This document shows, one piece after another, positions 3,144 through 50,552 of a stretch of 52,885 nucleotides of DNA. How positions within the stretch are numbered: the stretch's first letter is position 1; each line of letters starts with the position of its first letter. The notes beneath the pieces were generated by a model, which was given only the letters and a program-made list of their open reading frames with translations, searched no databases and was not told the DNA's origin. The DNA comes from a virus (Duplodnaviria > Caudoviricetes). A program made the translations under genes and the position numbers. The stretch spans positions 1 through 52,885 of the IMG/VR virus record IMGVR_UViG_3300011114_000575; one strand, 5' to 3'.

Positions 3144-4646
3144 CTACTTCCGACGTTCAATCTCCGTCTTCTCCAGACGACCGAGGCCGCTGCCAGCGCC
3201 AGCATCCATGTCCTTGTAGGAGCGATAGACGCGGCCACCAGCCTTGCGGCCCATCGGCCCGGCAGGAGGCATCTGCGGAGGAGGCATCGGCATGCCGCCA
3301 CCCATCGGGGGCATCGGCATCGGTGCAGCCACAGGAGGCATCACAGAGGCCTGACGAGGCATGACAGCCGGGGCGGCACCAGGACCGCCCAGACCGCCGG
3401 GCACGCCAGACTGACCCGCCGCGCCATCCACGGCAGGACGGCCCGCCGAGATGATGATGTTGACGTTCGTCTTGCCCTTGTTGGCGCGACCGCCAGTAGC
3501 GCGGGCCATGCGGCCACCATGCTGCGGACGCTCGCCGCCGATGTCGCCAATCTTGCCACCTTCGGCACGGCCAGAGACATCATCCTCGTAAATCGGCCTA
3601 CGAGTATAGCGCGAGGCGCCATACGCGTTGTCCTTCTTGTCGCGGAAGCTAGAGGCAGCAGCGCCGCTCTTGAACTTGCCGACAACATCCCCCGTATGCC
3701 GATCAATGACATGATACATAGACGGGGACTTGATTTCAGAAGAACCACCTTCGGCCTTGCCCATCCTGCCGCCAGAGCACTTGTGGCACCGGCAGCCGGC
3801 GCCATGGTCGGCCTTGCCGCCGTCCTTGCGCTTGGCAGCCGCACGCTGAAGTTCGCGGAAACGGGCCACATCAGGCTCTTCCGGAGGCCGCGTGACCGAA
3901 GTTTGGCGCGCGGGCACCGGCTCTGTGCGGCCAGCAATCAAACTACCAGGGTCGTTTACTTCACCGCCATCAGCCCGGTTACGCAGAAGCGCGTGGATCA
4001 TCGCGGCTTCACGCTTCTTGATCTTGCGACCGGAGCGATTGGAGCTACCAATGGCCTGATTGACAGCGTCTTCATTGTAACGCGGCCCCATATCAGGCTG
4101 CGGGCGAGGCATGCGACGCGCCGGAGGCATCGGCATGTTCTGTTCGTCAAAGATTTCGCCGCCATCCGCCTTGTGCTTGCGCATGGCCTTGTGGGCGCCT
4201 GCTTCGCCACCATGCTTCTTGCCGGTCAGCGCGGCACCCTTGACCATCTTCCTGACCAGGGCGCGGTCGGCAACAATGTCGTCGTGCTTAGGCGCGCCGC
4301 CATGCTTGTAGCCACCAACATGCGCCGTGCCGCCAGACCGCTCGCGATTGGCTTCCTTGCTGTCGCGGTTGATGTAGTTGTTGGGCGTCAGCGCCTTACC
4401 GCCGGCATTGCGCGGCTTGCGACCGGCGTGCTGATGCGCCTGCTCACCCTCAACGTGCAGCACCTTGCCGCCACGCTTGAAGGCGCGCTTGGAGACGGGG
4501 CGCATGCCAGTCTTGGCGCCGCTGTTCACCATCTCCGGGGGCGTCCACGACGAGGCGTCAACGTGCGCCTTCGGGTCGCCTGCGTCGCCCATACGCTTGG
4601 CCTTCGCCTTCATCGCCGCTCGCGCGGACTTGGCATCCTCAGACAT
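3144..4646 (-). CDS. Basic, low-complexity head-associated protein with about 11 xAxGG/xKxGG motifs
   Basis: 500 aa; FKRGG, RNAGG, YKHGG, KKHGG, KADGG, RADGG, RKDGG, KAEGG, RAEGG, RATGG, RKAGG; lies between portal and scaffold. Confidence 0.8.
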   Translation of the reverse strand: MSEDAKSARAAMKAKAKRMGDAGDPKAHVDASSWTPPEMVNSGAKTGMRPVSKRAFKRGGKVLHVEGEQAHQHAGRKPRNAGGKALTPNNYINRDSKEANRERSGGTAHVGGYKHGGAPKHDDIVADRALVRKMVKGAALTGKKHGGEAGAHKAMRKHKADGGEIFDEQNMPMPPARRMPRPQPDMGPRYNEDAVNQAIGSSNRSGRKIKKREAAMIHALLRNRADGGEVNDPGSLIAGRTEPVPARQTSVTRPPEEPDVARFRELQRAAAKRKDGGKADHGAGCRCHKCSGGRMGKAEGGSSEIKSPSMYHVIDRHTGDVVGKFKSGAAASSFRDKKDNAYGASRYTRRPIYEDDVSGRAEGGKIGDIGGERPQHGGRMARATGGRANKGKTNVNIIISAGRPAVDGAAGQSGVPGGLGGPGAAPAVMPRQASVMPPVAAPMPMPPMGGGMPMPPPQMPPAGPMGRKAGGRVYRSYKDMDAGAGSGLGRLEKTEIERRK

Positions 4647-4666
4647 TGGCAGAAGTCTCCATGGAG

Positions 4667-6484
4667 TTACGGGCGTCCCCGTGTGTGCTGACGACCGGGC
4701 AGCGCGGCGTGGCGAGTGAGGGATAAGGCGTGGTCGACAACGGAACCGCCACCCATTGGCAGACCAATTTCTGCCATGGCCTGGGCGAGAGGATGGTTGT
4801 GGGCAGGGTCTTCAATGGCACCGCCGGTAGCAGCATGGCGCATGGCGTTGATAACGTCTTGGTGCGTCGTCTGTTCGTCGCCGACCTTGTCCCAAACAGC
4901 ATGGTGGGTAAGGTGCTGGTAGTATGGCTCCATGCCCTCAGGCGTTTTCAAGCCCATAGCCTCCTGCCGGGCAGCAAGGCGGTCGACAGCTTCACTGCCG
5001 GCGCGTGCGAGGGGTTTCTTGGCCTCTGAGGTAGGATTGCCGGTGTGCAGGACAATCTGACGCGCATCGAGCGTAGGCTGGTCTCCACGTCCAAGTAGAG
5101 ACCCCATAAACCCAGCCTTTGCGCTGCCGATGCCATGAACGCCACCAATAAAATTGCGCCACTCTTCGGGACTGCTTTTGCTCTGCATCGCACGAGCAAC
5201 CATATCAGACACAGCTTTCGCATGCTGAGGAAGGTTTTGGGCTGCCCACGGAAGTGCCTTTGCTTCAGTAGACAGACCAAATACCTTCATGACATTGGCA
5301 GCGTCTGCAATGGATTCGTGGTCGACAATACCCTGCTCGGCGGCGTCAAGATAACGGCGCCCCATAGGAGAATGCAGCCACTCACCAAAAGCCCCTTCAG
5401 GACGAACGCTGCCATTAAAATCATGAGGAATTGGCACGCCCGACGCGCGAGCCTTATCAGCAGACCTAGATTCGCGCTGAATGCTGGATCGAGTGATTGT
5501 ATATGCCTTAATGAGGTCGCGAGGGGTTAAGCCATGCGTTGCGGCCCGACGCGCTGTCTCATCCATGAACTGGCCAAAGTTGACAACATGCGACGGGATT
5601 TCGCGTAAATCCCCAAGCTGTTCCTGCACTTCGCCAAGGGGTCGCCAATCCCATCCAGCCATCTTGCGGCTTTCAGGGTCTTTGTAGGCCTCGCCTCCAT
5701 CCGCACGATGAATGCGACCACCACGGGCGGCAGCATCACTATCACCATAACCACCGCCAAGGGGGCCGGCAGCGGCAGCGGCAGCGGCTGCCATCTCGGC
5801 GGTGCCGCCGGTCGGAGCCCCACCGCCATTAGGGTGCCAACGGTCCCCACTGCCACCCTGGCCTTCCTCAAGAGGATTGTCTGGGAGATTGTAGGAGGAC
5901 GCATTGAACGTCGGCGCGGGGATGGACGGGCCGATGTATTTCGATTCCAGAGGCTTACTTGACCCCGTGTAGGTGGTGGGGCGCGACGCCAGTATAGCCG
6001 CCATAGTGGCCTTGGACGGGGCGAGGTTCAGCGTTTCAGGCGACGGCAGGCCGGTGAAGGCGCCAGCAGCCGGGGCGAAGTTGATGGGGGCGCCAGTGGC
6101 CGAAGCAAAGCCAGCAGGACTGCCACCAAACGCATAGCCGCCACGGTTCATCATCTTGAGGGCGCGGTCGACAACGTTGCCGTGATCCCCCGCCACCCAC
6201 GCATCAGGCGTCTGGTGATAGACGGACATCCAATCATCATGCAGCTTGCTCGGCGCGATGCCATGCTCATGGCTAATGCGCTTCATGATGCCATCAATAG
6301 CCGCATACTGCGTGCGCCCCTTCATGCTTCGCAGTTCATCGCGATGCATCTTCAGGAGGTGTTTTAGTTCTGCAACGGCAGGATTGTGCGGCGTGTGCTT
6401 TGTAATGTTACCACGATTAGGTAAATTCTTGTGGCGAGCAACATGAAGCGCCGCACGGGCGGCTTTCTTGGGATCAGCGGTCAC
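4667..6484 (-). CDS. Multidomain virion-associated protein with an HhH-GPD DNA-glycosylase-like domain
   Basis: 605 aa, stop/start overlap with portal; VHGIGSAKAGFMGSLLGRGDQPTLDAR resembles the HhH plus catalytic Asp region, and HHAVWD is C-terminal; xAxGG motifs flank the domain. Confidence 0.6.
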   Translation of the reverse strand: MTADPKKAARAALHVARHKNLPNRGNITKHTPHNPAVAELKHLLKMHRDELRSMKGRTQYAAIDGIMKRISHEHGIAPSKLHDDWMSVYHQTPDAWVAGDHGNVVDRALKMMNRGGYAFGGSPAGFASATGAPINFAPAAGAFTGLPSPETLNLAPSKATMAAILASRPTTYTGSSKPLESKYIGPSIPAPTFNASSYNLPDNPLEEGQGGSGDRWHPNGGGAPTGGTAEMAAAAAAAAGPLGGGYGDSDAAARGGRIHRADGGEAYKDPESRKMAGWDWRPLGEVQEQLGDLREIPSHVVNFGQFMDETARRAATHGLTPRDLIKAYTITRSSIQRESRSADKARASGVPIPHDFNGSVRPEGAFGEWLHSPMGRRYLDAAEQGIVDHESIADAANVMKVFGLSTEAKALPWAAQNLPQHAKAVSDMVARAMQSKSSPEEWRNFIGGVHGIGSAKAGFMGSLLGRGDQPTLDARQIVLHTGNPTSEAKKPLARAGSEAVDRLAARQEAMGLKTPEGMEPYYQHLTHHAVWDKVGDEQTTHQDVINAMRHAATGGAIEDPAHNHPLAQAMAEIGLPMGGGSVVDHALSLTRHAALPGRQHTRGRP

Positions 6485-8820
6485 TGCACGCCTCCGGGAG
6501 CGCGAGGGTTGCCCAGGCCGGGCAGAGGGCGTCGCCTGGAGGCGTCCAAGGCAGCCTGACGGCTCTGCACGCTCTCAAACGACGGACGCACCAGAGGCTC
6601 TACCAGAGCGGCGCTGTAGGGATGCACAGCGAGGTTCTGGGCGAGGTCCACAAGCTGAATGCGTTCCTTGGCCAGCTTGTCGTCCAACTGCGCGTCAACC
6701 TGCTCACCGGCAATACTGGCGTCGGTCTCGACCTTGTGCGCATCAAGCTGCGCCTTGGCCACGCCCAGGTGCGCGTCGGTCGACAGCTTCTGCATACCAA
6801 TCTGGATATCGGCCTGCGCCTTCTGCGCCTTCGTCTGGGCGTCCAGCATGCGCGCCTGCGCCGTGATGTCCTTCGCCTTGGCGTCGGCCTGCATCTTCAT
6901 CATCTCAGGCGGCGGCGCACCCTGCGCATTCGGCGGCGCCATGAACTGCGACGGATTGCTCCAGCCAATCGCCTGAAGGGCGGCAGTATCAACGGCAATC
7001 GGATCGTAGAGGCCGGGCTGGGCGGCCTGTAGCTGCTTCAGGGCCATGATCTTCATGAGGCGCTGCGCATGCGACGCGGTGTTGGGATCGGCCTGGGGCG
7101 TCAACTCATAGTTATTAAGGGCTTGCAGGAAGACCTGCTCATCCCACGGGTAAGCCGGCGCCCTGTTCCTCTGCCAAAAGCTCTCAGGATTGTCGCGGAA
7201 GCACTTAATAAGTAACCGGAACTCCTGCGCCTGAGCGGCATGCATGCGCTTGTGAACGCTATTGAGAATCTTGGCGGCCTGCTCGATCATGGCCAACGTC
7301 GTGCCGACTGGCGCGTCAGCGCGACCCTCGCCCGTCTGCATCTCGGACACGCCGCCAATGCGCTGCCCGGTCTGGGCGATGTTTTCAACCAACGACATCA
7401 GCGCAGGAGACGGGTCTTTGTAGGGCAGTGGCATGATCGCCTGATTGATCGGCAACCCGCCCGTCTTGACCAACGCGCCACCACCCGGCGGCACGCGGAA
7501 GATGTTGGTATTTTGGCGGGCGCCAACATCCGACATCAGGAAGCCGGGGAAGTTGGCATACATGCCGGCATCGAGCAGTTCACGCCACGCGGCTGTGATG
7601 GCGTTCGTCGTGTTGCCCAAAATATGCAGCAAACCAATGTCATAAAAACCAAAGCCGGGAATGAACGTATACTTGACGAACGTTTCCTTGGCTTCGGGCA
7701 GTTCGCTTTGGTCTTTGTCGTAATTCCTAGTGATAGAAAGAATGTTCTTGGACGATACATCAATCGTCACCCGATAAGGAATCTCAAGACCGCTCTGCTT
7801 GCCCTTGTGCTTGTGTTCAAAGCCCAGGATATCGAGTTCGCAGTAGCACTCGTAGATTTCGCGGTCACGGTCCTCTGGGCGATGGGCATCAACGCTAATG
7901 CCTTCAACGTCCTTCTTTTCTTGATCGAGCGAGTTTGTCTTTGCGGCGCTGGGCGTGCTGAGGTTGATATCCTGATAGACGCCCAGAATTTGCAGGCGCT
8001 TCACTGTGCTAGGCTTCATGTATACGCGATGCGTAATACGCTTGGCGTTTGCAAGATCAGTGGCGGTATTGTTTACGATCAAATCGTTGGCGTCTACGGT
8101 TTCGCTCACGGGGCGATTGCGTAGAGGGCAGTAATACACCTTCTTAAACTGCGTCCCTCCAAAGCCCAGCATCAACAGCATGCGGTCAGTGTCGGGGTAG
8201 TATTCGCTGGCAGTCACGGTCAGGTAGTGGTTGAGGTCACGCTCAAGGGCGTCGGCCAGACGGTCCTCAGCGGCCGTGGCGTCGTTGTCGTCGTTCCTGA
8301 TCTTGACCGGCCCGTCAGTCGGAAGGAGTTCGGCGCGGGCATTGGCCTGGAAGCGCAGGACCGCCTCCAGCAGCAGAGGGTGACGAACGCGGCTGATGCC
8401 TTCGACCGGCGCGCCGTCTGCGCTGCCGCCAAGGCCAGGAATGTCCAGCTTCAGGCCGAGCAGGCGCACGCCATTGGCGCGATCCTCAACCCAGTCCTTG
8501 CGGCTGTCGATGTCGGCCTCGATGCTGCGGACGAGGTCGTCGGCAATGCGCGACAACTCTACAGCCTCAATGTCGTCAACGAGGTTGTCGAACCATCCAC
8601 GCGGACCACGCGATGCCGCGCTCTCCAGAGGGCTGCCGTCGATGGAGACGGTGACGCTGCCGTCGCCATGCTCAATCGACAAGATGTTGCCTTTGGCGTC
8701 GGTCATGCCCTGGTCTGGCGCGTCCTCCGCGACCTCCACCATGATGTCGCCCTCCAGCAACTCAGCTTGAGGCGGGGCGGGCTGCCGCAGAGACGGGCTC
8801 AAACCAGGGACGAGCGGCAT
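6481..8820 (-). CDS. Portal protein
   Basis: 779 aa downstream of terL; HPLLLEAVLRFQA...ELLP..GPVK, FKKVYY, PGFGFYDIG and GTTLAMIEQ motifs; Gln/Ala-rich C-terminal barrel. Confidence 0.9.
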   Translation of the reverse strand: MPLVPGLSPSLRQPAPPQAELLEGDIMVEVAEDAPDQGMTDAKGNILSIEHGDGSVTVSIDGSPLESAASRGPRGWFDNLVDDIEAVELSRIADDLVRSIEADIDSRKDWVEDRANGVRLLGLKLDIPGLGGSADGAPVEGISRVRHPLLLEAVLRFQANARAELLPTDGPVKIRNDDNDATAAEDRLADALERDLNHYLTVTASEYYPDTDRMLLMLGFGGTQFKKVYYCPLRNRPVSETVDANDLIVNNTATDLANAKRITHRVYMKPSTVKRLQILGVYQDINLSTPSAAKTNSLDQEKKDVEGISVDAHRPEDRDREIYECYCELDILGFEHKHKGKQSGLEIPYRVTIDVSSKNILSITRNYDKDQSELPEAKETFVKYTFIPGFGFYDIGLLHILGNTTNAITAAWRELLDAGMYANFPGFLMSDVGARQNTNIFRVPPGGGALVKTGGLPINQAIMPLPYKDPSPALMSLVENIAQTGQRIGGVSEMQTGEGRADAPVGTTLAMIEQAAKILNSVHKRMHAAQAQEFRLLIKCFRDNPESFWQRNRAPAYPWDEQVFLQALNNYELTPQADPNTASHAQRLMKIMALKQLQAAQPGLYDPIAVDTAALQAIGWSNPSQFMAPPNAQGAPPPEMMKMQADAKAKDITAQARMLDAQTKAQKAQADIQIGMQKLSTDAHLGVAKAQLDAHKVETDASIAGEQVDAQLDDKLAKERIQLVDLAQNLAVHPYSAALVEPLVRPSFESVQSRQAALDASRRRPLPGLGNPRAPGGVQ

Positions 8821-9048: not shown

Positions 9049-10737
9049 CTAGACCTCATAAATTGACGATGCGACCGGCGACTGGTGGCGCATGGATTCT
9101 TGCATCTCGGCTTGCCACTCAGGCTCACGGACAAGCAGGCCACGGTCGCGGAAGTGCTTTACAGCCATAGAGACTGTATCCACAATATCGTCATTTTTGC
9201 CCTTGGGGAACACAGATACTTGCTGGATCACCATGTCGGCAAATGCGCGGTCAGGTGCGTAGATAATACCCTCTGCGAAGAGATGCTGTATGCTGTATAG
9301 GCGAGCGAGCTTGTCTAGTGTTTTGGGGTCATACATTTGCACACCCCAATCTTCGTGACTGTATAGGCGGCGAATCTCTTGCGCGACGCTATGGCCGGCG
9401 GCCTTGTTCTCGATCAGGAGCAGATCGACTTTAAGGCGGCGGCAGGTTTTGGCCACCTTTTCGACGAGGTCGTGTAGCTCCAGACGCTCCTGCCAGCCGT
9501 CCATAAGCATGAGCCTGGGCTGGTCGCCACGCGGCCCCTGAGGGCCTTTGTGCAGCACCTGGGCGGCTTGATCAAACATATTCATGGCGTCCTGCGTGTC
9601 GCGCCTCTGGCCGCCTCGTGTGGCGTAGGCGTCGATGCGCTGCGCCTGGGCGCCGCTGAACAGCCCCCAGACGGTCAGGGCGCTGAAGTCGTTCTCGGCC
9701 TTGATCGTGTAGGCGGTATCGAGCGAGGCGACGACATACTCCATAGGCGGGAACACGTTGGCCTCGTAGAGGCGCCACCACTCCCGTTTGATAACGCCAC
9801 CGCCACGCGGCGTAGGCTCCTGCTGGAACTGGCCGGCTGTCGCGTATGGCCCCATGACGCGCTTGTCGCGGGCGACCACCTCAGCCGGGAAACGCTCAGG
9901 GAACAGCAACTCGCCGGCTTCCGTGCGAGGGTCTATGAACCCCAGCTTGGTCGGGAACGAACGCGCCGGGTCGAATTCCATCGGCAGCATGAGGTGATCG
10001 TATCCAAGCTGCTTATCCAGGATGATGCCGCTCACGTCCTCCTCATGGAGGCGCTGCATGATGATGACAATTGAAGATCGAATGGGATCATTCAAACGTG
10101 TTGGAATAGCTTCAAGAAATGTAGTGACTTCCGTCTGTCGCTGCGTTTCGGAAGCTGCTGAATCCACAGAATGTGGATCATCAATGATAACCCTGTCGCC
10201 CCTGATACCTGTCAAGCTAGTGATCGCAGTGGCAATACGAAAGCCACCAACGCTATTGACAAAATTCAGCTTCTCATTCTGATCCTTGGCCAGCTTGACG
10301 TTGTCGCCCCATCGGGCCTGATACCATTCAGACGTGATCAACTGCCGCATACGCCTGCTATCGCGAGCCGACAGATTCTCGACCTTGTGCGCCGCACAAA
10401 CATATCGCAAGTGCGGCAGGTTGCACGGCCCCCACTCCCACGCGGGCCAAAACACATTGGTAATAAGAGACTTCATTGTCCCTGGCGGAACATTTACAAG
10501 AAGACGATTGTATGGCGTTCCGTCGTCTAACTCGTGGCCATCAGTAATCGCCTCAAGATGCTCGCAAATGGCGTCAATATGCCAACCATGCGTATATGGC
10601 TGCCCTGGCTCAACTATCGCCCACGCCATACGAATAAAAGCAACAAGGCTTTCTGCGGCCTCCGCCTTATCTAAGTCGATTAGAACCTTGTCAGCGTCAA
10701 GAACAAGATTGCCAACACGAACAAGCGTATTGCTCAC
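9049..10737 (-). CDS. terL: Terminase large subunit
   Basis: Walker A variant VPPGTMKS, Walker B RVIIDDPH, IMQRLH coupling motif, RNase H-like nuclease (SLDTA, IENKAAG, NDDIVD). Confidence 0.95.
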   Translation of the reverse strand: MSNTLVRVGNLVLDADKVLIDLDKAEAAESLVAFIRMAWAIVEPGQPYTHGWHIDAICEHLEAITDGHELDDGTPYNRLLVNVPPGTMKSLITNVFWPAWEWGPCNLPHLRYVCAAHKVENLSARDSRRMRQLITSEWYQARWGDNVKLAKDQNEKLNFVNSVGGFRIATAITSLTGIRGDRVIIDDPHSVDSAASETQRQTEVTTFLEAIPTRLNDPIRSSIVIIMQRLHEEDVSGIILDKQLGYDHLMLPMEFDPARSFPTKLGFIDPRTEAGELLFPERFPAEVVARDKRVMGPYATAGQFQQEPTPRGGGVIKREWWRLYEANVFPPMEYVVASLDTAYTIKAENDFSALTVWGLFSGAQAQRIDAYATRGGQRRDTQDAMNMFDQAAQVLHKGPQGPRGDQPRLMLMDGWQERLELHDLVEKVAKTCRRLKVDLLLIENKAAGHSVAQEIRRLYSHEDWGVQMYDPKTLDKLARLYSIQHLFAEGIIYAPDRAFADMVIQQVSVFPKGKNDDIVDTVSMAVKHFRDRGLLVREPEWQAEMQESMRHQSPVASSIYEV

Positions 10738-11201
10738 TTCTTGGCCTTAGCCGCTACCATCACAGCACGCAATGCGTCGCGCTGCTCAGGCGAAAGGTCG
10801 CCAACATCAATCGTCGTCGCTTCCACCCTAATAGGCCCACCATCAGGACCAGACAGTTCCTGCTTTTGAGAATCAATCCAACCAGATGCAGAGCGACTAC
10901 GATTACGCAAACCCAAACTAATAATCTGAGAGTTTCCAGGTGAACCATTAGCAGTGTTCATTGCCCTTTCTTCCCACCACGCAAGAGCCTTGATGCGCCC
11001 TTCGTGAATAGCTTGCGAAAACTCAAGGTGCTTTGCCTGCCAATCGTAGATACACCTATGTGGGATATCTAATTTAGCAGACGCAGCTTCAAGAGAATAA
11101 CCTTGAGCCATAATCTCGATGATCTTATCGCAATACTCTGGCTTGTAATTAGTGGGGCGACCCATCTTGCGCTTAACTTCGCCTTCCTTATCTACTGCCA
11201 T
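10734..11201 (-). CDS. terS: Terminase small subunit
   Basis: GRPTNYKPEYCDKII N-terminus with HTH, ELSGPDGGPI motif; overlaps terL start. Confidence 0.88.
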   Translation of the reverse strand: MAVDKEGEVKRKMGRPTNYKPEYCDKIIEIMAQGYSLEAASAKLDIPHRCIYDWQAKHLEFSQAIHEGRIKALAWWEERAMNTANGSPGNSQIISLGLRNRSRSASGWIDSQKQELSGPDGGPIRVEATTIDVGDLSPEQRDALRAVMVAAKAKK

Positions 11202-23331: not shown

Positions 23332-23395
23332 AACTTCGCCCATTGGGGCAAGAGCGAGTGGTGGGCTAGATCACCACATTTTGGAGAATGGTAAA

Positions 23396-29408: not shown

Positions 29409-29650
29409 GCAACAGGAACCGGAGGGGAGTTGGGCGCGGCGTTACCTTCAGTCTGCATAGGCTGCGGCGGCGCAGGTGGAACGGGATCAGTGCCATTCCA
29501 CGGGAAGCCTGGAGAAGCCTGCACGGAGCCGGTGTAATGCACCAGCGTGATGCCTTCAGGAGGCGTGTATTCCGCCACGCCATCATACTCTATGACGTTG
29601 TCGATGATGCTGTTCGCGTCAATCAAAAGCCAGGGCATGATGCTCACCAT
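29405..29650 (-). CDS. Small tail-fibre-associated protein (putative chaperone)
   Basis: Follows the tail fibre; NVIEYDGVAEYTPPEG is paralogous to 44699..44929. Confidence 0.6.
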   Translation of the reverse strand: MVSIMPWLLIDANSIIDNVIEYDGVAEYTPPEGITLVHYTGSVQASPGFPWNGTDPVPPAPPQPMQTEGNAAPNSPPVPVA

Positions 29651-39000: not shown

Positions 39001-40299
39001 TCAGATGGTCAAGTCGTAAACTTGGAGAGTCGCAATGCCAGAACCAGCGGGCGAGTTGTTTAACCCACGAGCCGCCACAGTCATAGTATCACTTGTGCCA
39101 AAGCCGTTTCCAGACAAAGAAGCCGTCAGGCCAAGCTGAAGGTCGAAATTATAGCCTGTTTGCGCGGCAACGCCTTGACTGGACTGGTTGCTTGCTGCCG
39201 TAAAGTCAGACTGCATAATGCTATCAACAGTTGGCGCAACAGCTACCGTAGCCGCCGTATCGACATCGACATGCCCATTGGCAATTGCACTAGCGGCCCA
39301 CGTAGCCCCCGTCAGCGTTGCATTTTTGATAAGCACAATTTCATAGCTGCCAGATGCGGTAGGCAAGAAGTTGACGATAGAGGGGATGATAATAGCGCCA
39401 TAATAAGAGGAGTTTATGCGAACGGAAACAATTGGCGTAAAGGTCAGGCCAGTATTGTTGGCAATCGTGATACCATTACCGCTAGGGCGAGCAATATATG
39501 GCTGAGATATCTGCTCGTATCCACCCTCAGAAATGACAGTTGCACAAATTTGCTGCAAGGTAGCAGCAGAAGTTGTTGTTCCCGTCGTAAAAATCTCATA
39601 CCTTATAGGCAGAATGGCAGTCTGCATGTAGACTTTTGTCTGGTTGTTGGAGTTTGAAAAAATATGGGCGGTGTAAAACACGCCATTCTCAACAAACCCA
39701 ACCTGCACGTTGCCGACGCCCAGCCACTCAAAAGACATGAACATGATTTGAGTCTTGGTCAAATCAAGATTTATGCCGCTAGGCCCGCTGCCGTTAAACT
39801 TATCAACGTTCCAATTGGCTTGAGTCACAAAGCGAGAGTTATCGACTGAACCGCTAGTGTAGGTGCGAACAACAAAAGAAATCTGCGAACCCGCCTGCTC
39901 CAGGTAGACGCCATTGTAGGCGCTGTAGTAGCCGGCGCGCTGCGTCAGATTGGTCTGTGCAGCGGCAAAGGAGAAGGTCTGAAGCGTCAGCAGGCTTTTG
40001 CCGGGCTGATAAGGGAAGACGCGGTAGGTCTGGCTTAAAACCTGAGACCCAGAGGTTGTCGTGACAGCCAAAGCAATGGCGCTCTGATTCGTGACATAGG
40101 TTGCCGTGCCGCCTGTCGCCGTGGCAAAGCTAAACGCCGCATCAGCCGCAAACCGGCTCTGGGAATCAAACACAGTGAACGGCTGAGAGACACGAAGCCG
40201 CCCAAAGGCATCAACCGTGTTGCCGAGAAACTGAGAAATCTGCCCGGTAACAGGAGCCGAAGCACTATACCCAAGTGCCGGGAACTGCGTGATGGTCAA
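39001..40299 (-). CDS. Putative virion structural protein (DAFGRLRVS type)
   Basis: Beta-rich, 432 aa; TTG start overlapping the upstream TGA, or expressed by -1 frameshift. Confidence 0.7.
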   Translation of the reverse strand: MTITQFPALGYSASAPVTGQISQFLGNTVDAFGRLRVSQPFTVFDSQSRFAADAAFSFATATGGTATYVTNQSAIALAVTTTSGSQVLSQTYRVFPYQPGKSLLTLQTFSFAAAQTNLTQRAGYYSAYNGVYLEQAGSQISFVVRTYTSGSVDNSRFVTQANWNVDKFNGSGPSGINLDLTKTQIMFMSFEWLGVGNVQVGFVENGVFYTAHIFSNSNNQTKVYMQTAILPIRYEIFTTGTTTSAATLQQICATVISEGGYEQISQPYIARPSGNGITIANNTGLTFTPIVSVRINSSYYGAIIIPSIVNFLPTASGSYEIVLIKNATLTGATWAASAIANGHVDVDTAATVAVAPTVDSIMQSDFTAASNQSSQGVAAQTGYNFDLQLGLTASLSGNGFGTSDTMTVAARGLNNSPAGSGIATLQVYDLTI

Positions 40300-40712
40300 G
40301 TAGAATTTCCCCCAGATATCGTCACAGTGATGCCAGAAGCCAAAGCATAACCCTGAATCGTCGCCCCGGCCCCAATAATCTGGGTGCTTTCCCACAAAAC
40401 GGTAGTGTTGCCAGGAATGGGCGTGTTGTAAAATATCGCATTACCCGCGCCAGCTACGCCGCCAAGCGGGACAAAAAACAAATACACATTGATTGTAAGG
40501 GATGTGGTGTTGCAGATATTGATAGAGTTTACGTGCGACTTTGCGCCTGAAGATGCCGCGTATAGAGTAGCAACAGACGTTCCAAGCGTCGTCTGACAAA
40601 GCTGCGTAGTGGAGATGTTATTGTAGACACCAAGAAGATACGACGCAAGATTGTTGATGGCAATCACGCCATTCTTTTGCGTCGTAAGAATGTCTGAGAG
40701 AGATGCGCTCAT
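40296..40712 (-). CDS. Putative tail accessory protein
   Basis: 138 aa, beta-sandwich-like; coupled to the nozzle gene. Confidence 0.7.
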   Translation of the reverse strand: MSASLSDILTTQKNGVIAINNLASYLLGVYNNISTTQLCQTTLGTSVATLYAASSGAKSHVNSINICNTTSLTINVYLFFVPLGGVAGAGNAIFYNTPIPGNTTVLWESTQIIGAGATIQGYALASGITVTISGGNST

Positions 40713-42769
40713 TAGAATTTGCCATCCTGCTGGAGCCTGTATCTAATGTTGCCAAGCCTCCAGAAGCTATCAATGTCGCTGCTGGCAATGCCGATCGAGA
40801 CAAGGCGCCCACGGAACCTAGTGTTAAAATAATCTGTTGCCTGAGTTACGGTGTATGGACCATATGCTTCTGGCGTGGCGCCTGGGTAGTCAGTGACATA
40901 GAATGTGATTTGCACGTTGGCGCTAGGGGTTTGATTGTAATAGCCCCACTTCATATCAGGCCAAACAAGATCAACGAAAGACTTTACGTCGCCATCCTGC
41001 ATGGCAAAATAGCCAGTCTGGAAGCTGGACGACATAGGCTGCTCATCAGCATTCGGGGAAATCTCGTGCTGATAGATAATGTTGGTCGAACTAGAACCAA
41101 TGGGAGGGCCAAAAACAGACTGATTAATCCAAGCAGTCCTGTCTAGGGTGCCAAAATCCCAGCCCCGCGTGTTGATATTATACTTTACATAGTTGGTGTT
41201 TTCGCCACCATTGACGGTTGGATAATACCAAGTAACTTCACCAAACTGCGAGTTCGTGGCAATCCTAATTTTCTTGATAGTGTCGCTGTTCAGGTTGGTG
41301 ATTGTCTGAAAGACAACGTCCCAAATGGGGCAGTAGATAGGCATAACGCCTTCGCCAGACAGCATGAAAAACTGAGTCTGGCTCATCCAATAGACAATGC
41401 CGTTCATTGAGGCTGCGGCCTTCGGGGCAATCAGGCCGCATCCCGTCCCAATCTCATTAAAGCTGTAGATGAACGGCTGGCCGACATACTGCATCGCCCA
41501 CACGGCAAGGTCAGTCCAAAGCAGGCCCTGCTGGGGGCCTTGGATGCCGCCGACAATCAGGGAGCCGCGAGGGATGCGGTAGGAGCCAGCCTGATTGGTG
41601 GACTGAGCGATCCACACAGACAGGTTGCCTACGTCACACCAGCGCACCAGCATCGGGTCTTGGATGCCGTTGAAGGTGGAACCCCACGCGATGATCTGCT
41701 GCTCCGGCATGGCCACGAAGGCGCCAGAGTTGGCCGCAGGGCCTTGAGGAATGACCGTGGCGATAGGCGACGACACGGTGGGGCTCCAGATATAGATCGG
41801 GCCACCGTAGGGGCAGGAGACGAGGATGCTGCCCCAATTGTCGAGCGTCCAGTCCGTCGCAGTGATGGGTGTGCCAACGGCGGCAACTGGAGGGACACCC
41901 GTCCCCCAGCCACCATCACCCCAGCCGCCAGCGCCCCAGCCAACGCCAGCCGCCGGAGTCCCAATGCCAACATAATACAGATACGACGCATTGCCACCAT
42001 TGAGGTAGCCTGTCGTCGTAGACGTGGCAGAGGCGGATGTTTGAATAGTAAATATGCTGCTCGATGTTACGCCAGTTACCGTGTAATTACCAGAAAAAGT
42101 GATGCCACCAACGGTCGTGGACATAAGAACAGGAAATGTGGAGCCAATCGAATAGCCGTGATTAGGCAGCGTCACAGATACGGTTGACGATCCGCTAACC
42201 ACAGAAAATTGAGGAAGCACAGCAGTCGAAGATGTTGTCGTGGCAAGCTTTGGATTGCCAAGAGCATCGGTAGCAATGATGGTGTAATTATTTGCATCAA
42301 ATGCGTAGCACTGATAAAGGCCAAAAAGAACAAGATTGCTGACGCTTATCTGCGTTTTGATAAAAACAGTGTTATAGCTAGTCACATTTGAAGATGGATC
42401 GTTGATGTTTACAACGCTGCTGCCAGCCGTAGTAGACGCCGGATAGGTTGCAATAGCCGGGCTAGTGGAGAATGTCCTAGGTGTGATATTGGTAAGAGCG
42501 TTATTGAGAATTGTATTTAAGGATGATACGCATCCAACGCCAAGATATTTGTTGCTGTTTACATCAGCCCAAGCCAAAAGCGCGCGGACAACACTGTCCA
42601 TGGCCGTGGGGTAGAACTTCCCCCAGCCGCCCAGCTTCTGCGGCAGCGCGACGCCTTTGTCATCAATCATGAAGCGGATAAGCTGAGACTGCGAGATGCC
42701 AGCCTCGTTCAGCGCCGGGGTGCGGTTCTGATTGACGGTCGGGAGAAGCTTCAGGGATGCGTGCGGCAT
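40712..42769 (-). CDS. Tail nozzle / tail tubular protein B-like
   Basis: 685 aa; beta-propeller-like C-half (WTLDNWG, LVRWCD, AGSYRI, TRFRGR) with inserted Ser/Thr-rich domains. Confidence 0.7.
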   Translation of the reverse strand: MPHASLKLLPTVNQNRTPALNEAGISQSQLIRFMIDDKGVALPQKLGGWGKFYPTAMDSVVRALLAWADVNSNKYLGVGCVSSLNTILNNALTNITPRTFSTSPAIATYPASTTAGSSVVNINDPSSNVTSYNTVFIKTQISVSNLVLFGLYQCYAFDANNYTIIATDALGNPKLATTTSSTAVLPQFSVVSGSSTVSVTLPNHGYSIGSTFPVLMSTTVGGITFSGNYTVTGVTSSSIFTIQTSASATSTTTGYLNGGNASYLYYVGIGTPAAGVGWGAGGWGDGGWGTGVPPVAAVGTPITATDWTLDNWGSILVSCPYGGPIYIWSPTVSSPIATVIPQGPAANSGAFVAMPEQQIIAWGSTFNGIQDPMLVRWCDVGNLSVWIAQSTNQAGSYRIPRGSLIVGGIQGPQQGLLWTDLAVWAMQYVGQPFIYSFNEIGTGCGLIAPKAAASMNGIVYWMSQTQFFMLSGEGVMPIYCPIWDVVFQTITNLNSDTIKKIRIATNSQFGEVTWYYPTVNGGENTNYVKYNINTRGWDFGTLDRTAWINQSVFGPPIGSSSTNIIYQHEISPNADEQPMSSSFQTGYFAMQDGDVKSFVDLVWPDMKWGYYNQTPSANVQITFYVTDYPGATPEAYGPYTVTQATDYFNTRFRGRLVSIGIASSDIDSFWRLGNIRYRLQQDGKF

Positions 42770-42772: not shown

Positions 42773-43513
42773 TTACCTCCCTGGCGTGGCCACGACGGCG
42801 GGGCTCATGGAAGACCAGCCGCCAGCTTCGAACTTCTTGCGGAACTCCTCCACCGTGGCGCCCTTGACGAGAGCCTGATACTGGCTTTCGTAAGACACGG
42901 CCATGGCAGGGTCGTCGCTTTGGCGACCAAAGTTCCGCTGATATGCGGAGATATAGATCATGCTGGCCATGATAAACAAACTTGGCAGATTTTGACTAAT
43001 AAATGTCGTGGGAACAGTAGCCGAAAGTGAGGGCGGGCGATACGTCCCAATAATTTCCAAGGTATACGGGCCATCAGGGAATGGCGCGATCAAAAAAGTA
43101 TTGAGTGTCTGGGTTGTCGGTGTTGTGCCGGTGCTGCTTTGGCTTTGAGGCGCAAAGTAGCTGGGTGTGGCCGTGTAGGTGGCACTTGGATAGTTGATGT
43201 TGATGAACTCTTTTGTCGTCGGCAGCATAGGAACCCGCGTCCCGGAATCAGGCGACACGGTCCCATAGGGAGTGATGGCGTTGATCTCCTGGACAGTCAC
43301 AAACTGAGGGAACGTCACCGACCGAGTGCCAGTCGGAATCGTCTGCGTGGCCGTTGTCACCGTCGCCAGGAGGTCTAAGTCCCTGTAAATCCTCAGTTCG
43401 GCGTAATCAATCATTGCCGGCAGGATGGTTAGGAAGTTAGGATCAGTCGGGGAGACGACAGCCATCTCGGCGATCTGGGTCTGGTAGCTTGAATAGGTTA
43501 GGCCGGTCGTCAT
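42773..43513 (-). CDS. Head-tail adaptor / tail tubular protein A-like
   Basis: IDYAELRIYRDL...IAPFPDGPY..EI motifs; upstream of the nozzle. Confidence 0.7.
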   Translation of the reverse strand: MTTGLTYSSYQTQIAEMAVVSPTDPNFLTILPAMIDYAELRIYRDLDLLATVTTATQTIPTGTRSVTFPQFVTVQEINAITPYGTVSPDSGTRVPMLPTTKEFININYPSATYTATPSYFAPQSQSSTGTTPTTQTLNTFLIAPFPDGPYTLEIIGTYRPPSLSATVPTTFISQNLPSLFIMASMIYISAYQRNFGRQSDDPAMAVSYESQYQALVKGATVEEFRKKFEAGGWSSMSPAVVATPGR

Positions 43514-43619: not shown

Positions 43620-43985
43620 TTACTCTACAACCTCAAGAGTCCTATCATTGCTTACCGCAACGGTAGCGCGAACTGACCTATTTTGAATGATACAGCCATT
43701 GCTGGCCGTGCGATTCATAGACGTGTTGTCGCCATGGATTAGGAAACCATCACGCCCAAAAGTATCAGTCCCCTTCATGGGCGTAAGACGCATTGTCATA
43801 GGGCCTGCCTTGGGATGCGTGAACGCAACACCAATGCTATAAAGCCCACGAGGAATAGGTCCAACATCACGAATAGCTTGAGCCTCAGGGTTATTCACCC
43901 CATTGCCACAACCAGCATACCCAGAGCCCACGACCTTGTCGTTATAAGACAGATTGCCTGTCTTTTGCGAATATTTCCACGTCAC
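43620..43985 (-). CDS. Tlde1/DUF2778-like L,D-transpeptidase-fold protein, candidate endolysin
   Basis: GPIPRGLYSI, GRDGFLIHGD...ASNGCII catalytic His/Cys motif; adjacent to the holin. Confidence 0.8.
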   Translation of the reverse strand: MTWKYSQKTGNLSYNDKVVGSGYAGCGNGVNNPEAQAIRDVGPIPRGLYSIGVAFTHPKAGPMTMRLTPMKGTDTFGRDGFLIHGDNTSMNRTASNGCIIQNRSVRATVAVSNDRTLEVVE

Positions 43986-44410
43986 TTGGACACCCCCTTG
44001 ACCTTCTCGATGGTGCGAGACGCGCTATACCCAAGGAAACAGAATCCAAACATCTGCCACATGGTCTCAGGAATGGCCGCAAGCCACTTTTGAAGACCAA
44101 TGGCAATCAGGTCGGCATGCTTGGGGGTGATGCCATACAAAATTCCCATGGGGATGCTGCCCAACATGAGAATATACATGACATACATGAAGCTAGGACG
44201 TGCGCGAGAGGTCCACTTATCAGAAGAATTGGCCTCCGCAAGCATGACGCTCATCTGCTGCTGAAGATTTGCCAGCGCAGCGTCAGCGTTTGCCTTGATA
44301 ATCATAGCCTGTGCTGCGGCCGTCTCCGTTGGATTCGGCCAAATCTTGTTGATGGCGTCATCAATTAGCTTTGAGGCATTAGAGATAGCGTCATCAATGC
44401 CGAATGCCAT
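43982..44410 (-). CDS. Holin (3-TM gene-transfer-agent type)
   Basis: AEANS..WTSRARP..MY, hydrophobic helices, LGYSASRTIEKVKG C-terminus. Confidence 0.8.
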   Translation of the reverse strand: MAFGIDDAISNASKLIDDAINKIWPNPTETAAAQAMIIKANADAALANLQQQMSVMLAEANSSDKWTSRARPSFMYVMYILMLGSIPMGILYGITPKHADLIAIGLQKWLAAIPETMWQMFGFCFLGYSASRTIEKVKGVSK

Positions 44411-47374: not shown

Positions 47375-48067
47375 TTACGGCCTGTAATAGCCTGCAAGCT
47401 GGGGGGAAATGTATTGCTGTGCAGTTTCTACGTTTTGTTCCGCCGCAATACGGTAGGACTCATCCGCCTGCGCCTTAAGCCCAGGCGCCATAGGAGGATT
47501 CCAAATCTTAGCCAAACGATAAGCCAAACCATCTCCAAAGGCTTCAAGCCAAAGGTAGGGGATATCGAGCGTCTGACCGTTTGTAAAGTTAGCATCCTCA
47601 ATGCGGCGCACTCGATAGTATTTCAGATATTGCGCGCTGCTGCCATCAGGAACAGGCCAAAGAGTGACACTAGGGGAAATCAGCCTGTCAAGCCAATATA
47701 CCGTAGTAAACCCCTGTTGCTCCTTATTAGGATACGTGGAGTATTCCGAGCGGCTAATAGGAAGAATGATGCGGTCGGTAGATGTTGAACCACTGACGGT
47801 TGTCACATAAGCATCAAGAATAATAACCGTGCTTTGGTCAACCGAATAAGTAGACTGCCCCTGCACAAGCGGAACCGTCACAAGGTCAACCTTCCACAGG
47901 TTGACGCCCTGGTTAGCCCAGCGTGCCAGCATGAGATTGGTTGCCATCTTCGCAGAATGCATATGCTCCTGCAGGAGCGCAGTGTTGCGAACGCCAGCAA
48001 CATTGAACGCATACAGGACCAATTCGCCAAGCGATGGATTGAATGCGTATGTGCCGGAAGAAGTCAT
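47375..48067 (-). CDS. Head completion / adaptor protein
   Basis: NLMLARWANQGVNLW, ISRSEY..YPNK, LWPVPD and GLAYRLA. Confidence 0.7.
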   Translation of the reverse strand: MTSSGTYAFNPSLGELVLYAFNVAGVRNTALLQEHMHSAKMATNLMLARWANQGVNLWKVDLVTVPLVQGQSTYSVDQSTVIILDAYVTTVSGSTSTDRIILPISRSEYSTYPNKEQQGFTTVYWLDRLISPSVTLWPVPDGSSAQYLKYYRVRRIEDANFTNGQTLDIPYLWLEAFGDGLAYRLAKIWNPPMAPGLKAQADESYRIAAEQNVETAQQYISPQLAGYYRP

Positions 48068-48068: not shown

Positions 48069-49031
48069 TCAATACTCTACCACAATTACAATTCCAGGCG
48101 CACCTGCGCCGCCAGCGCCACCGACGAAACCACTAGTGCTGTTTCCGGCGCCACCGCCGCCACCACCGGCTCCGTAGTTGCCGCCAGCGCCGCCTGCACC
48201 GCCGTTGCCAGTAGAACCTGCACCACCACCACCACCACCCGATGCTGGTGCGTTTGCAAAAATATTTATAGGGGATTGTCCAGAACCTGCGCTACCATTA
48301 GCATTAATGGCGCCGCCCGAAGCGTTATTAAATGGACCATTTATCAACGTGCCACCGCCACCTGCGCCTGCCTGAGCAGTGCCTGCATTAAACCCACCTC
48401 CACTACCGCCGCCAGTAGGAGAATTTTGATTGTTTCCGCCACTAAAAGCAGTCCCGGTTGAACTACCACCCCCACCAGCACTGCCTGAATACAATGCGCC
48501 AGCGCCGCCTGCAGAGCCAAATCCACCTCCCGCTCCAAAAGCAGAGCCCAATCCACCAGCGGCATTTGTGCCAAAACCTCCCTGTAGGCTGTTTTGTGAA
48601 GCCGAACCACCACCACCCGAAGCCACCCCTAATGCTCCGGGAGCGCCGCCGCCTCCACCACCCCCATATACTTTGGAAGCAAACGAACTGACGCCGCCAA
48701 TACCACCTTGACCGGCAATACTCCCCCCGGTTGGAATTACCCCAGACTGTCCAGCAGCACCGCCAGCCCCAACAATAATAGTTTCTGTCGCAGAAAGACT
48801 TGCAGCATTAAACTGATATGAAAAGTAACCGGCACCACCACCGCCGCCGCCGCCTGACCCGCTGCCTGCGGCATACGTGCCCCCAAATCCCCCACCACCG
48901 CCGCCACCCACAACAAGAACCTGAACCGTCTTTGTGTTCGGGTTCTTTGTCCAGGTGCTAGAGCCGGTGGTCGAAAACGTCGTGGTAATAGGCGCAATCG
49001 CGCCGGAGGTTGCTACTGCACGAACAGCCAT
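48069..49031 (-). CDS. Glycine-rich adhesin-like protein
   Basis: VQVLVVGGGGGGG...GAPGIVIVVEY; many polyglycine runs. Confidence 0.75.
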   Translation of the reverse strand: MAVRAVATSGAIAPITTTFSTTGSSTWTKNPNTKTVQVLVVGGGGGGGFGGTYAAGSGSGGGGGGGAGYFSYQFNAASLSATETIIVGAGGAAGQSGVIPTGGSIAGQGGIGGVSSFASKVYGGGGGGGAPGALGVASGGGGSASQNSLQGGFGTNAAGGLGSAFGAGGGFGSAGGAGALYSGSAGGGGSSTGTAFSGGNNQNSPTGGGSGGGFNAGTAQAGAGGGGTLINGPFNNASGGAINANGSAGSGQSPINIFANAPASGGGGGGAGSTGNGGAGGAGGNYGAGGGGGGAGNSTSGFVGGAGGAGAPGIVIVVEY

Positions 49032-49658: not shown

Positions 49659-49841
49659 TCACTTGCCCTTCTTGGTGTGACCAGCGCGAGCCGCAGTAAT
49701 GTTGTCTACCATATTAGGGTAAGGGCGGCCAGAGGCGCGAGCATGTGCCTTGGCATCCTTTACCCCTTCGCGGCTCAAGTGCTTATGCACCGCATCTTTA
49801 GGGGCTGCCGTTTCCCAAAATTCCTTGTGCTTCTTCATCAC
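49659..49841 (-). CDS. Small basic protein
   Basis: AKAHARASGRPYPNMVDN; start overlaps the upstream stop. Confidence 0.65.
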   Translation of the reverse strand: MMKKHKEFWETAAPKDAVHKHLSREGVKDAKAHARASGRPYPNMVDNITAARAGHTKKGK

Positions 49842-50104
49842 GGGCAATCCCACTTACGGAGAGACTTGTTGATCCGGCTATTGGGGTCGTGAGCCGCCTT
49901 GGCGCCCGTAAGCTTATTACGCATCCCTTCCATCCGCGCACAGAATGAGCGGCGGCGGGCGGCAGAAAGCTCGCTATGCTGCGCCTCGTCACGCGAAACA
50001 GGGCGTTTGATGTCGCGCCCCTCCGCCTTCAAAGAAGCCCTACCCTTCTCATTGAGGCCGCCAGAGGGGTTCTTGCCCTCCTTACGAGTCCAAGCACCAG
50101 CCAT
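49838..50104 (-). CDS. Small basic head-module protein
   Basis: AWTRKEGKNPSGGLNEKGRAS...RRSFCARM...SRINKSLRKWDC; GGAGG RBS. Confidence 0.8.
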   Translation of the reverse strand: MAGAWTRKEGKNPSGGLNEKGRASLKAEGRDIKRPVSRDEAQHSELSAARRRSFCARMEGMRNKLTGAKAAHDPNSRINKSLRKWDCP

Positions 50105-50115
50105 TACAGCCTCCA

Positions 50116-50141
50116 GAGAAAGACGGGGGCTTTCGCCCCCG
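50116..50141 (-). terminator. Terminator after the capsid operon
   Basis: CGGGGGC-GAAA-GCCCCCG followed by TCTTTCTC. Confidence 0.7.
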
Positions 50142-50147
50142 CTGTTC

Positions 50148-50552
50148 TTAGTCGATGTCCATGTCCTTGTGCCCGTGCGGCAGAGTGCCCTTGTGGGCGC
50201 TGCTCAGCGGGGAGGCATCAGAACCAGACTTGGCGCGACCGCCAGCCTTGCGGGGCTTGCGACCGGCATGATGCTGCGCGGCAGCGCCATGGACGGCGCC
50301 AACGTGCTTCACATGGCCCATGTGGTGGTGCATGACGTGACCGCCATGCTTCCGCTTGGTGCGACCGCCATGTTTCTTGGCCTTAGCCTCACCCGAAACG
50401 TTGCTCTCGTTCGTGTAGTCCATGATGGGGTGATCGAGGTCTTGCTTAAACTCAGCAACACCCTTCATATTCTCGCCGGCAGGGCCGCCTTCAGCAAAGT
50501 GACCCTTGTGCGCGGCGTGCTTGCCGTGATGATGCGCCTTATGACCCTTCAT
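50148..50552 (-). CDS. His/Lys-rich protein with four xAxGG/xKxGG motifs
   Basis: FAEGG, KKHGG, RKHGG, RKAGG; AGGAGA RBS. Confidence 0.8.
   Translation of the reverse strand: MKGHKAHHHGKHAAHKGHFAEGGPAGENMKGVAEFKQDLDHPIMDYTNESNVSGEAKAKKHGGRTKRKHGGHVMHHHMGHVKHVGAVHGAAAQHHAGRKPRKAGGRAKSGSDASPLSSAHKGTLPHGHKDMDID

Follow-up and report, generated by a model that had tools for sequence, protein, structure and literature searches.

The DNA analysed here (the window) is the 52,885-base IMG/VR virus record IMGVR_UViG_3300011114_000575, which is classed as linear and estimated to be 91% complete. It covers almost the entire genome of an uncultured podophage whose portal is of the SU10 type. An initial annotation had pointed to a short double-glycine motif in six of its proteins. 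We find that this motif is selected at the protein level, conserved across relatives and restricted to the class of head-internal and ejection-cluster proteins; we are highly confident that it is a real, class-specific and selected feature. On the basis of sequence comparisons, we tentatively read the motif, together with a nearby helix, as an encapsidation or tethering tag for head-internal proteins, giving this reading slightly less than an even chance. To our knowledge, how tailed phages without a T4-type core choose the proteins that are enclosed and injected is poorly understood. As a rule, head cargo comes to light only when the virions of cultured phages are analysed by proteomics. The signature described here is readable from sequence and sets candidate head-internal proteins apart from those of tail, adaptor, capsid and replication, and the separation holds in 11 portal-anchored loci, in one complete GenBank genome and among orthologs from 80 loci anchored on a 464-residue virion protein.

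The carriers form two groups (Table 1): portal-proximal proteins of 605 and 500 residues, the latter with a 134-residue paralog, and ejection-cluster proteins of 210, 1605 and 627 residues. We counted strict motifs as matches to the regular expression [KRFY][AK]xGG, taken unchanged from the initial annotation. All 28 pentapeptides listed there are present in the translations of the genes to which they were assigned, and 21 of them fit this consensus; RNAGG, MNRGG, AARGG, AATGG, AAHGG, ESTGG and RREGG do not, and because its variants fall outside the consensus the 627-residue protein has no strict match in the window. The window proteome (65 open reading frames, ORFs) contains 23 strict motifs, compared with expectations from 300 shuffles of 4.0 (maximum 11) after full shuffling, 5.0 (maximum 13) with all glycines fixed, and 5.5 (maximum 14) in the strictest scheme, in which glycines were fixed and the remaining residues shuffled within 30-residue blocks. 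Protein by protein (2000 shuffles each), the 500-residue protein has 10 motifs versus 1.0 expected and the 134-residue protein 4 versus 0.25, with 0 of 2000 shuffles as high in either case, and clear enrichment within the window is confined to these two. The 605-residue protein (2 versus 0.43, p = 0.06), the 210-residue protein (2 versus 0.28, p = 0.03) and the 1605-residue protein (3 versus 0.42, p = 0.008) complete the picture, such that four of the six named proteins are marginal (p 0.008–0.07) or lack a strict match in the window alone. The reported observation holds, with 23 versus about 5 for the proteome as a whole, and the evidence within the window is thinner than had been described.

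The carriers had also been described as mostly unrelated, which is true only in part. Residues 68–107 of the 134-residue protein match residues 57–85 of the 500-residue protein with 48% identity over 40 columns (BLASTP, E 1e-5), which by sequence makes the smaller protein a partial paralog of the N-terminal block of the larger; since the two share this block, the two strongest carriers are not independent. Nor are the two FAYGG matches of the 1605-residue protein independent, as each follows one copy of an internally duplicated Peptidase_S74 segment. The major capsid protein (MCP) and the scaffold-like protein have 0 strict motifs each, the portal has one, at its extreme C terminus (RAPGGVQ-stop; 6490..6504, minus strand), and the remaining match is in a plus-strand ORF (23255..24115). 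The GTG start of the next gene directly follows the portal stop codon, and the portal of the GenBank record MW202675.1 has no strict match. Two Gly_rich_2 proteins (48069..49031 and 29644..31146, both on the minus strand) contain 36% and 22% glycine and 58 and 27 GG pairs, respectively, and no motif, so GG richness alone does not produce the signature. When the six genes were compared, the codons at the motif varied between copies, placing the signal at the protein level as the initial annotation had held; a DNA-level recombination signal was dropped as a candidate for the same reason. Of 44 glycine codons within motifs, 43 are GGC or GGT, versus 292 of the 396 glycine codons elsewhere in the six genes; runs of G may be avoided here, or translation may exert selection.

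Because the regular expression was defined after the window had been viewed, the tests in relatives weigh more. We analyzed the 11 IMG/VR loci that contain both the portal and the GroES gene (portal approximately 64–73% identical in the best segment), leaving out seven near-identical loci (L003–L009). In the zone between these two genes, which we refer to as the cargo zone, 29 proteins with 18,051 residues contain 104 motifs versus 17.1 ± 3.9 expected (maximum 27 in 200 shuffles), and 24 of the 29 have at least one; the 91 other same-strand ORFs of these loci, with 28,107 residues, contain 2 versus 4.2 expected. Orthologs of the 500-residue protein, drawn from 80 of the at least 597 IMG/VR loci with a portal homolog, always have 6–11 motifs versus about 1–2 expected, and the large, very variable proteins encoded between the portal and this ortholog are motif-enriched too. 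Across the whole MW202675.1 genome, 18 motifs were found versus 4.8 expected, of which 15 lie in four portal-proximal proteins and three ejection-cluster orthologs and 3 in three other ORFs; its ortholog of the 627-residue protein has RKSGG at residue 575.

A second set of 80 loci, anchored on the 464-residue virion protein (47–83% identity), allowed the ejection cluster to be followed family by family. Orthologs of the 210-residue protein contain the motif in 18 of 18 cases (32 motifs versus 3.2 expected), those of the 1605-residue protein in 16 of 17 (46 versus 8.5) and those of the 627-residue protein in 7 of 8 (7 versus 1.6), with R-A/K-x-GG-R at the equivalent place in these 7 of 8. The motif is absent from all 68 copies of the 464-residue virion protein (3.6 expected), all 48 of a 685-residue virion protein (6.3 expected), 32 adaptors and 16 GNAT proteins, and the 775 unassigned ORFs of these loci, spurious ones included, contain 68 versus 37.5 expected. 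The motif is thereby seen to be conserved in related phages, and in the window as in its relatives it is missing from the MCP and scaffold and from terminase, tail, adaptor and replication proteins; for MCP, scaffold and replication enzymes the initial annotation had said as much. The notion that the motif is a chance or compositional product of Gly/Ala/Lys-rich low-complexity sequence draws on the marginal carriers in the window and on the late choice of the regular expression; set against the block-shuffled expectation of 5.5 for the 23 observed, the 104 versus 17 and control 2 versus 4 obtained with an unchanged expression in relatives, and motif positions that are invariant in 76 homologs, it is extremely improbable.

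The signature consists of two elements, the second of which the initial annotation had missed. The first is [Y/F/K/R]-[A/K]-x-G-G-x-[V/I/A/T]. Usually within about 15 residues of it lies the second, a short helix of amphipathic character that reads (V/I)(V/I)xxALx(L/I) or is basic and rich in Ala and Arg. Signatures are placed at N termini, at C termini and at junctions between folded modules. Thirteen distinct proteins of relatives start with Met, an amphipathic helix and a motif at residues 17–24, about 30 proteins end 7–36 residues past a motif, mostly in the order motif, helix, stop, and internal copies border conserved domains. In 15 cases tandem copies follow one another at a spacing of exactly 8 residues, and in four relatives the C terminus follows 2–4 residues after a variant GG motif (...RRGGAV, ...HARGGVAK, ...AAKGGVV and ...AATGGEVN, each followed by stop). 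The two elements can also separate at gene split points. The initial annotation had placed the motif in linkers between modules, in agreement with its location at domain borders and in predicted disordered stretches. Mimicry of the GroES mobile loop was considered and dropped, as the residues after GG are mostly charged.

The first element comes in two flavours. In proteins like the 500-residue protein, whose net charge is +8.7 per 100 residues, position-specific counts give the basic form R-x-x-[RK]-K-x-G-G-[RK]-[A/V/T], and the motifs of the window protein itself follow [RK]-K/A-x-G-G-[RK]-[AVT]. Orthologs of the large cargo and internal virion proteins instead have [Y/F]-A-x-G-G-[E/A/S/L]-[V/I] with neutral to acidic flanks. 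AT-hook and RGG-type motifs bind nucleic acid, and the basic flavour ([RK]-K-x-GG-[RK], GRKPR, C-terminal RGRP) could likewise be a repeat that binds packaged DNA, with the carriers riding along with the genome. The high net charge, a mean charge of +2.9 over the 11 residues up to the motif, a conserved HAGRKPR-x-AGG and several cargo proteins that end in ...RGRP are in line with this proposal. The versions in large cargo and internal virion proteins are neutral to acidic (e.g., YADGGEVDD; −1.1 over positions +1 to +8) and only the uncharged core is common to both, so DNA binding can cover only one flavour and is improbable as an account of the signature.

The 500-residue protein is basic and mostly disordered, with three predicted helices (residues 124–134, 211–222 and 260–271) that each lie ahead of a motif. 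Invariant in 76 homologs are G59 and G60, G385 and G386, and R467, K468, G470 and G471. An AlphaFold2 (AF2) model built from these 76 sequences has a predicted template modeling score (pTM) of 0.20, and 295 of 500 residues have a predicted local distance difference test (pLDDT) score below 50; the isolated helices break off 2–3 residues ahead of RADGG and of RKDGG, and the motifs are mainly in coil of low confidence. Confidence in the model as a whole is low, and we use it only for the point that no repeat fold is predicted, on which ground a structural-repeat fold was rejected; predicted disorder with isolated helices fits a linear motif rather than a repeat fold. Searches of Pfam, PHROGs and PDB sequences gave no match for the 500-, 605- or 134-residue protein, such that the two large portal-proximal proteins of the window have no recognised domain, and the ESM Atlas returned for the 500-residue protein only unnamed viral clusters (0.80–0.84, below the lead threshold). 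The protein has at least 2349 homologs, and among the 120 listed none has a Pfam domain or a name beyond ‘hypothetical protein’.

The 605-residue protein begins with a basic helix, followed by VVDRALKM-x5-YAFGG and an Ala/Gly/Pro-rich linker, and the GG element that accompanies its starting helix is degenerate. RADGG lies directly before a conserved, all-helical domain of about 300 residues and AATGG closes it; in an alignment of this domain the GG motifs frame it, and A297, A298, G300 and G301 are invariant in 11 of 11 rows. Helix-motif matches fall at residues 104 and 582, and the C-terminal tail is GGGSVVDHALSL...RGRP. The AF2 model of the conserved domain (11 sequences, mean pLDDT 44.7) did not reach the quality needed for a fold search. 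At their C termini, several portal-proximal cargo proteins have ...VVD-x-AL-x-L...(K/Q/T)RGRP, in which an AT-hook-like RGRP forms the extreme end; these are the window protein (4667..4760, minus strand) and proteins of the relatives L003, L004, L008, L053 and L067. In relatives, portal-proximal proteins reach 1,800 residues. Among 28 large ones, ART-PolyVal domains were found in 10, InPase in 1 and GP88 in 2, and from these domains the portal-proximal carriers of relatives are assigned to the ‘polyvalent proteins’ of Iyer et al. 2017, which that paper proposes to be packaged and injected (PMC5512222).

The ejection cluster comprises a small protein, a GNAT protein, a giant protein with an endolysin-like region and the 627-residue protein, an arrangement that we take to resemble the internal core and ejection genes of T7-like phages. 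In the small, 210-residue protein, an N-terminal module of about 40 residues ends in a helix followed by KAGGG, and KAAGG forms a second motif. This module (residues 1–43) is not in Pfam and recurs in 127 phage records, among them as the N terminus of the DUF2213 prohead proteases of Acinetobacter Obolenskvirus phages and Burkholderia BcepB1A, where it has no GG element (L170:4001-5353 and L171:4001-5737; the BcepB1A protein has a NUDIX insert). Since the module heads prohead proteases, it travels with proteins that work inside proheads, and on this sequence basis it may be a general prohead-interior module. The giant, 1605-residue protein resembles an internal virion polyprotein and has two internal Peptidase_S74 domains (residues 387–435 and 686–747; PF13884, E 3e-19, two stretches) and an endolysin-like region at residues 1185–1369. 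S74 domains usually stand at the C terminus of tail fibres. Each of the two here starts with FSDKRLKEN, which contains the SD-x-RLK cleavage segment of the S74 type, and FAYGG follows about 20 residues after each; judging from this segment, the protein may cut itself into three pieces. In the 627-residue protein, the variant motifs lie about 50 residues from the C terminus and are followed by the helices AASLVRAAEAAKK and HIVKALSIA.

Table 1 Carrier proteins and other annotated genes of the window, with the positions of motifs
Feature	Position	Strand	Motifs and matches
P0001, 500 aa (amino acids), basic, mostly disordered	3144..4646	-	10 strict motifs (FKRGG 4467-4481, YKHGG 4296-4310, KKHGG 4206-4220, KADGG 4158-4172, RADGG 3963-3977, RKDGG 3816-3830, KAEGG 3744-3758, RAEGG 3555-3569, RATGG 3489-3503, RKAGG 3234-3248) and RNAGG
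P0002, 605 aa, portal-proximal cargo protein	4667..6484	-	YAFGG 6122-6136, RADGG 5693-5707, AATGG 4820-4834
P0003, 134 aa, His/Lys-rich	50148..50552	-	4 strict motifs (50484-50498, 50364-50378, 50340-50354, 50238-50252)
P0004, 210 aa, ejection-cluster protein	38363..38995	-	phrog_2423 match at residues 2-43
Internal-virion-protein-like polyprotein, 1605 aa	33050..37867	-	FAYGG 36479-36493 and 35582-35596, FAEGG 36419-36433; also AAHGG
Ejection-cluster protein, 627 aa	31155..33038	-	variants ESTGG and RREGG-RVG
Small terminase	10734..11201	-	
Large terminase	9049..10737	-	
Portal, SU10 type	6481..8820	-	PF23899 E 1.7e-18, phrog_1216
Phage GroES	2425..2817	-	Cpn10 E 1e-7
Scaffold-like coiled-coil protein, 298 aa	1518..2414	-	alignment
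Conserved head-module protein, 222 aa, no recognised family	838..1506	-	
MCP, 304 aa	51776..52690	-	
SU10-type adaptor proteins (two)	47375..48067 and 42773..43513	-	
Tail or virion proteins	39001..40395 and 40712..42769	-	
Holin and Tlde1/YkuD-like lysis pair	43982..44410 and 43620..43985	-	

As a tag, the signature would earmark polypeptides for incorporation into the procapsid and for retention in the head until injection. The glycine pair would act as a helix stop and flexible hinge, many weak copies would together provide avidity, and the motif would be bound by a receptor, conceivably the scaffold-like protein, the inner surface of the capsid, the portal or the polycationic 500-residue protein itself. 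Among these we infer the scaffold-like protein as a candidate receptor; the portal gene is the upstream border of the cargo zone and is context rather than an established partner. The placement of the motifs favours a tag in several respects: separately encoded cargo proteins mostly keep a motif, often 15–36 residues from an end; a cut at copies at the extreme C terminus would be pointless where a C-terminal recognition peptide is sensible; and the tandem and multi-copy arrangement suits avidity.

The same placement might mark maturation cleavage sites, at or after which a phage or host protease would cut to free cargo modules, trim terminal helices and chop the basic 500-residue protein into small DNA-condensing peptides. 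Adenovirus does chop its core-protein precursors, and T4 removes its targeting peptide. Motifs mark the junctions of domains and separate terminal helices from the rest of the protein, at about one per domain border in proteins of 1000–1800 residues, and the 1605-residue protein, with its two self-cleaving S74 domains, is probably processed. The polyvalent-protein paper also proposes processing, by a zincin-like peptidase (PMC5512222). Against this stand the motifs 2–4 residues from natural C termini and the tandem copies, which would be redundant as cut sites, and the gene content. At an E cut-off of 0.001, the 66 ORFs of the window match 20 Pfam families, of which only Peptidase_S74 and the Tlde1/YkuD of the lysis cassette are peptidase-like, with no cysteine peptidase, CE-clan, C39 or ABC family among them. 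Six-frame searches of the window for DUF2213, S78 and S49 gave nothing, and a search with Mu-like_Pro matched only the C-terminal end of the scaffold-like protein (Mu gpI/Z, positions 282–330; weak at E 0.002 and 12.9 bits, under the cut-off). That no canonical prohead protease is recognised in the window, as noted at the outset, is thus upheld, and no peptidase domain was found in the 28 large cargo proteins of relatives either. Two candidates for a hidden protease were rejected: the 298-residue scaffold-like protein, which by alignment has an acidic N-terminal part, a coiled coil and a C-terminal helix-turn-helix, and the 222-residue head-module protein, whose invariant columns contain no Ser or Cys and a single invariant His. 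By its sequences, the head module looks like the scaffold-dependent, protease-free type, and the lack of an encoded protease favours a tag over cleavage. The initial annotation had left a docking tag and a cleavage site side by side; the tag fits better, given the copies kept in 24 of 29 cargo-zone proteins and the C termini just past GG, and cleavage, left without an enzyme, we consider unlikely.

A third account dispenses with a receptor and takes the signature as a generic structural junction, in which a helix stop and glycine hinge insulate modules or ease unfolding and threading through portal and tail, and which is kept and spread by cassette shuffling of cargo genes at conserved junctions. 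In the AF2 model, and likewise where the conserved domain of the 605-residue protein closes, helices do terminate immediately ahead of the motif; helix and GG element can occur apart at gene split points, the cargo zone varies greatly in size and content among close relatives and contains repeated modules, and the GGC/GGT bias may be added to these. A hinge would not, however, need a conserved aromatic or basic residue at −3, Ala or Lys at −2 and Val or Ile at +2; other virion proteins with several domains, among them the 685-residue and 636-residue tail proteins, lack the motif; and the codons at the motif are not conserved, which makes DNA-level recombination there unlikely. We assign this account a low probability.

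Several observations weigh against the tag reading as well. Five of the 29 cargo-zone proteins lack a strict motif, and the ortholog counts include inherited sites and so overstate the number of independent events, although the contrast between protein classes is still very strong. No clear enrichment is seen in more distant phages that share the head module (GB2A, 7 versus 3.4 expected; CRP-902, 4 versus 2.5; HTVC027P, 6 versus 3.3 over 46 of its 58 kb), so the head module assembles without the motif; FKKGG, YKKGG and FKNGG do occur in small proteins encoded after the portal of HTVC027P, and one protein of this phage ends in ...FKNGGKK. The opposite flank charges of the two flavours are awkward for a single receptor pocket, the copy number scales with domain junctions, which fits a cleavage or linker role equally well, and sequence analysis identified no binding partner for the motif. 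The carriers are probably virion-internal and injected, as judged from gene position and weak family labels, and no cultured phage of the same clade is among the 18 GenBank records with a portal match. In an elaborated form of the tag reading, the disordered 500-residue protein would be a multivalent hub whose basic [RK]KxGG[RK] copies pair with acidic [YF]AxGG[ED]V tags in a modular cargo-loading code. Pairing would run backbone to backbone across the glycines and hold enzymes on the packaged DNA or the inside of the head so that they are co-injected, giving a cohesin-dockerin-like system with a changeable enzyme set inside the capsid; we regard this form as distinctly unlikely.

By analogy, the nearest functional precedent for a tag is the capsid targeting sequence (CTS) of T4 (IPI-III, Alt). 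It is N-terminal only, present in a single copy and removed by the prohead protease. As with the CTS, a short peptide is the only common feature of diverse packed and injected proteins, and an N-terminal amphipathic segment can precede the cargo body; that the carriers are diverse and share a signature is what makes it resemble the cargo tag of T4 internal proteins, and the diverse internal proteins of T4 are described as having only the CTS in common (PMC3012670). The signature differs from the CTS in being bipartite, multi-copy and also C-terminal or internal, has no sequence similarity to the CTS consensus as generally known, and occurs in a genome with no prohead protease family of the T4 type among its 66 ORFs or in the six-frame searches. 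Encapsulin cargo-loading peptides are short, terminal and sometimes repeated in disordered linkers, and dock enzymes inside a shell with the HK97 fold. Some carriers here similarly end with the motif; the consensus is a different one, the head is filled with DNA and has a scaffold, and binding to the shell is suggested only by analogy.

The other double-glycine systems fit less well. The initial annotation had likened the motif to sites of the adenovirus protease, of African swine fever virus (ASFV) polyproteins and of C39 peptidases. As commonly described, such sites, those of ASFV pS273R included, share with it a Gly-Gly with upstream determinants in virion-internal or exported proteins. Adenain cuts (M/I/L)-x-G-G-x, with an aliphatic P4, and C39 leaders follow LSxxELxxIxGG. 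The conserved V/I at +2 and aromatic or basic residue at −3 differ from the adenain, ASFV and C39 consensus as we know it; the residue four before the scissile position would be Ala or Lys, preceded by an aromatic or basic one, and the Pfam scan of the 66 ORFs found no CE-clan cysteine protease. For C39 leaders, the motifs are mostly internal or C-terminal and the same scan found no C39 or ABC family. Polymorphic toxins have junction motifs, such as VENN (CdiA) and DPxGL (Rhs), at one border only, the one that precedes the C-terminal toxin. The signature is likewise a short peptide at the border of conserved parts and rapidly exchanged modules; unlike these junctions it is multi-copy, occurs also in non-modular small proteins and is tied to one virion protein class. 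Multi-domain carriers within the head gene block match what the polyvalent-protein paper describes for injected effectors (PMC5512222), although we found no zincin-like peptidase or MuF anchor domain in the 28 proteins of relatives or the 66 ORFs of the window. Neither ‘glycine’ nor ‘linker’ nor ‘low-complexity’ occurs in the main text of that paper (PMC5512222), and a description of the signature was not found in print by full-text terms, titles and the starts of abstracts; the supplementary architectures of the same paper might show these linkers. Peptides that target cargo to capsids are already known; what would be new here is a bipartite, multi-copy signature, at either terminus or internally, that polyvalent effectors have in common with ejection proteins across a large uncultured clade. 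Should it prove to be a loading tag, metagenomes would allow the anti-host proteins that are injected (ADP-ribosyltransferases, pyrophosphatases and unknown domains) to be listed, and it would offer a handle for packaging foreign proteins into phage heads. If it is instead a cleavage site, it would represent an undescribed protease specificity in phage maturation.

The MCP resembles families of major head proteins weakly (phrog_371, E 7.9e-11; Mu-like gpT under the cut-off). The GroES gene lies directly upstream of the scaffold-like gene, an order also found in HTVC027P and CRP-902, and the 222-residue head-module protein combines an N-terminal part rich in Pro and Arg with the invariant block GW-Y-WKR...GW..V...RHP. 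Just downstream of the gene for the 134-residue carrier is an 88-residue DUF6321 protein (49838..50104, minus strand); in PHROG families DUF6321 forms the C-terminal end of much longer proteins. No near-identical DNA was found in GenBank phages. Among GenBank records the metagenomic MW202675.1 comes closest, its portal being 67% identical; Pelagibacter HTVC027P, Roseobacter CRP-902 and Caulobacter GB2A, cultured phages that keep this order of head genes, are much more remote, with portals approximately 30% identical. The clade is large and environmental, as the numbers of IMG/VR portal relatives and of homologs of the 500-residue protein given above indicate. A GapR-like DNA-binding domain among the 66 ORFs and the gene transfer agent (GTA)-type holin with three transmembrane segments encoded in the lysis cassette are hints of an alphaproteobacterial host.

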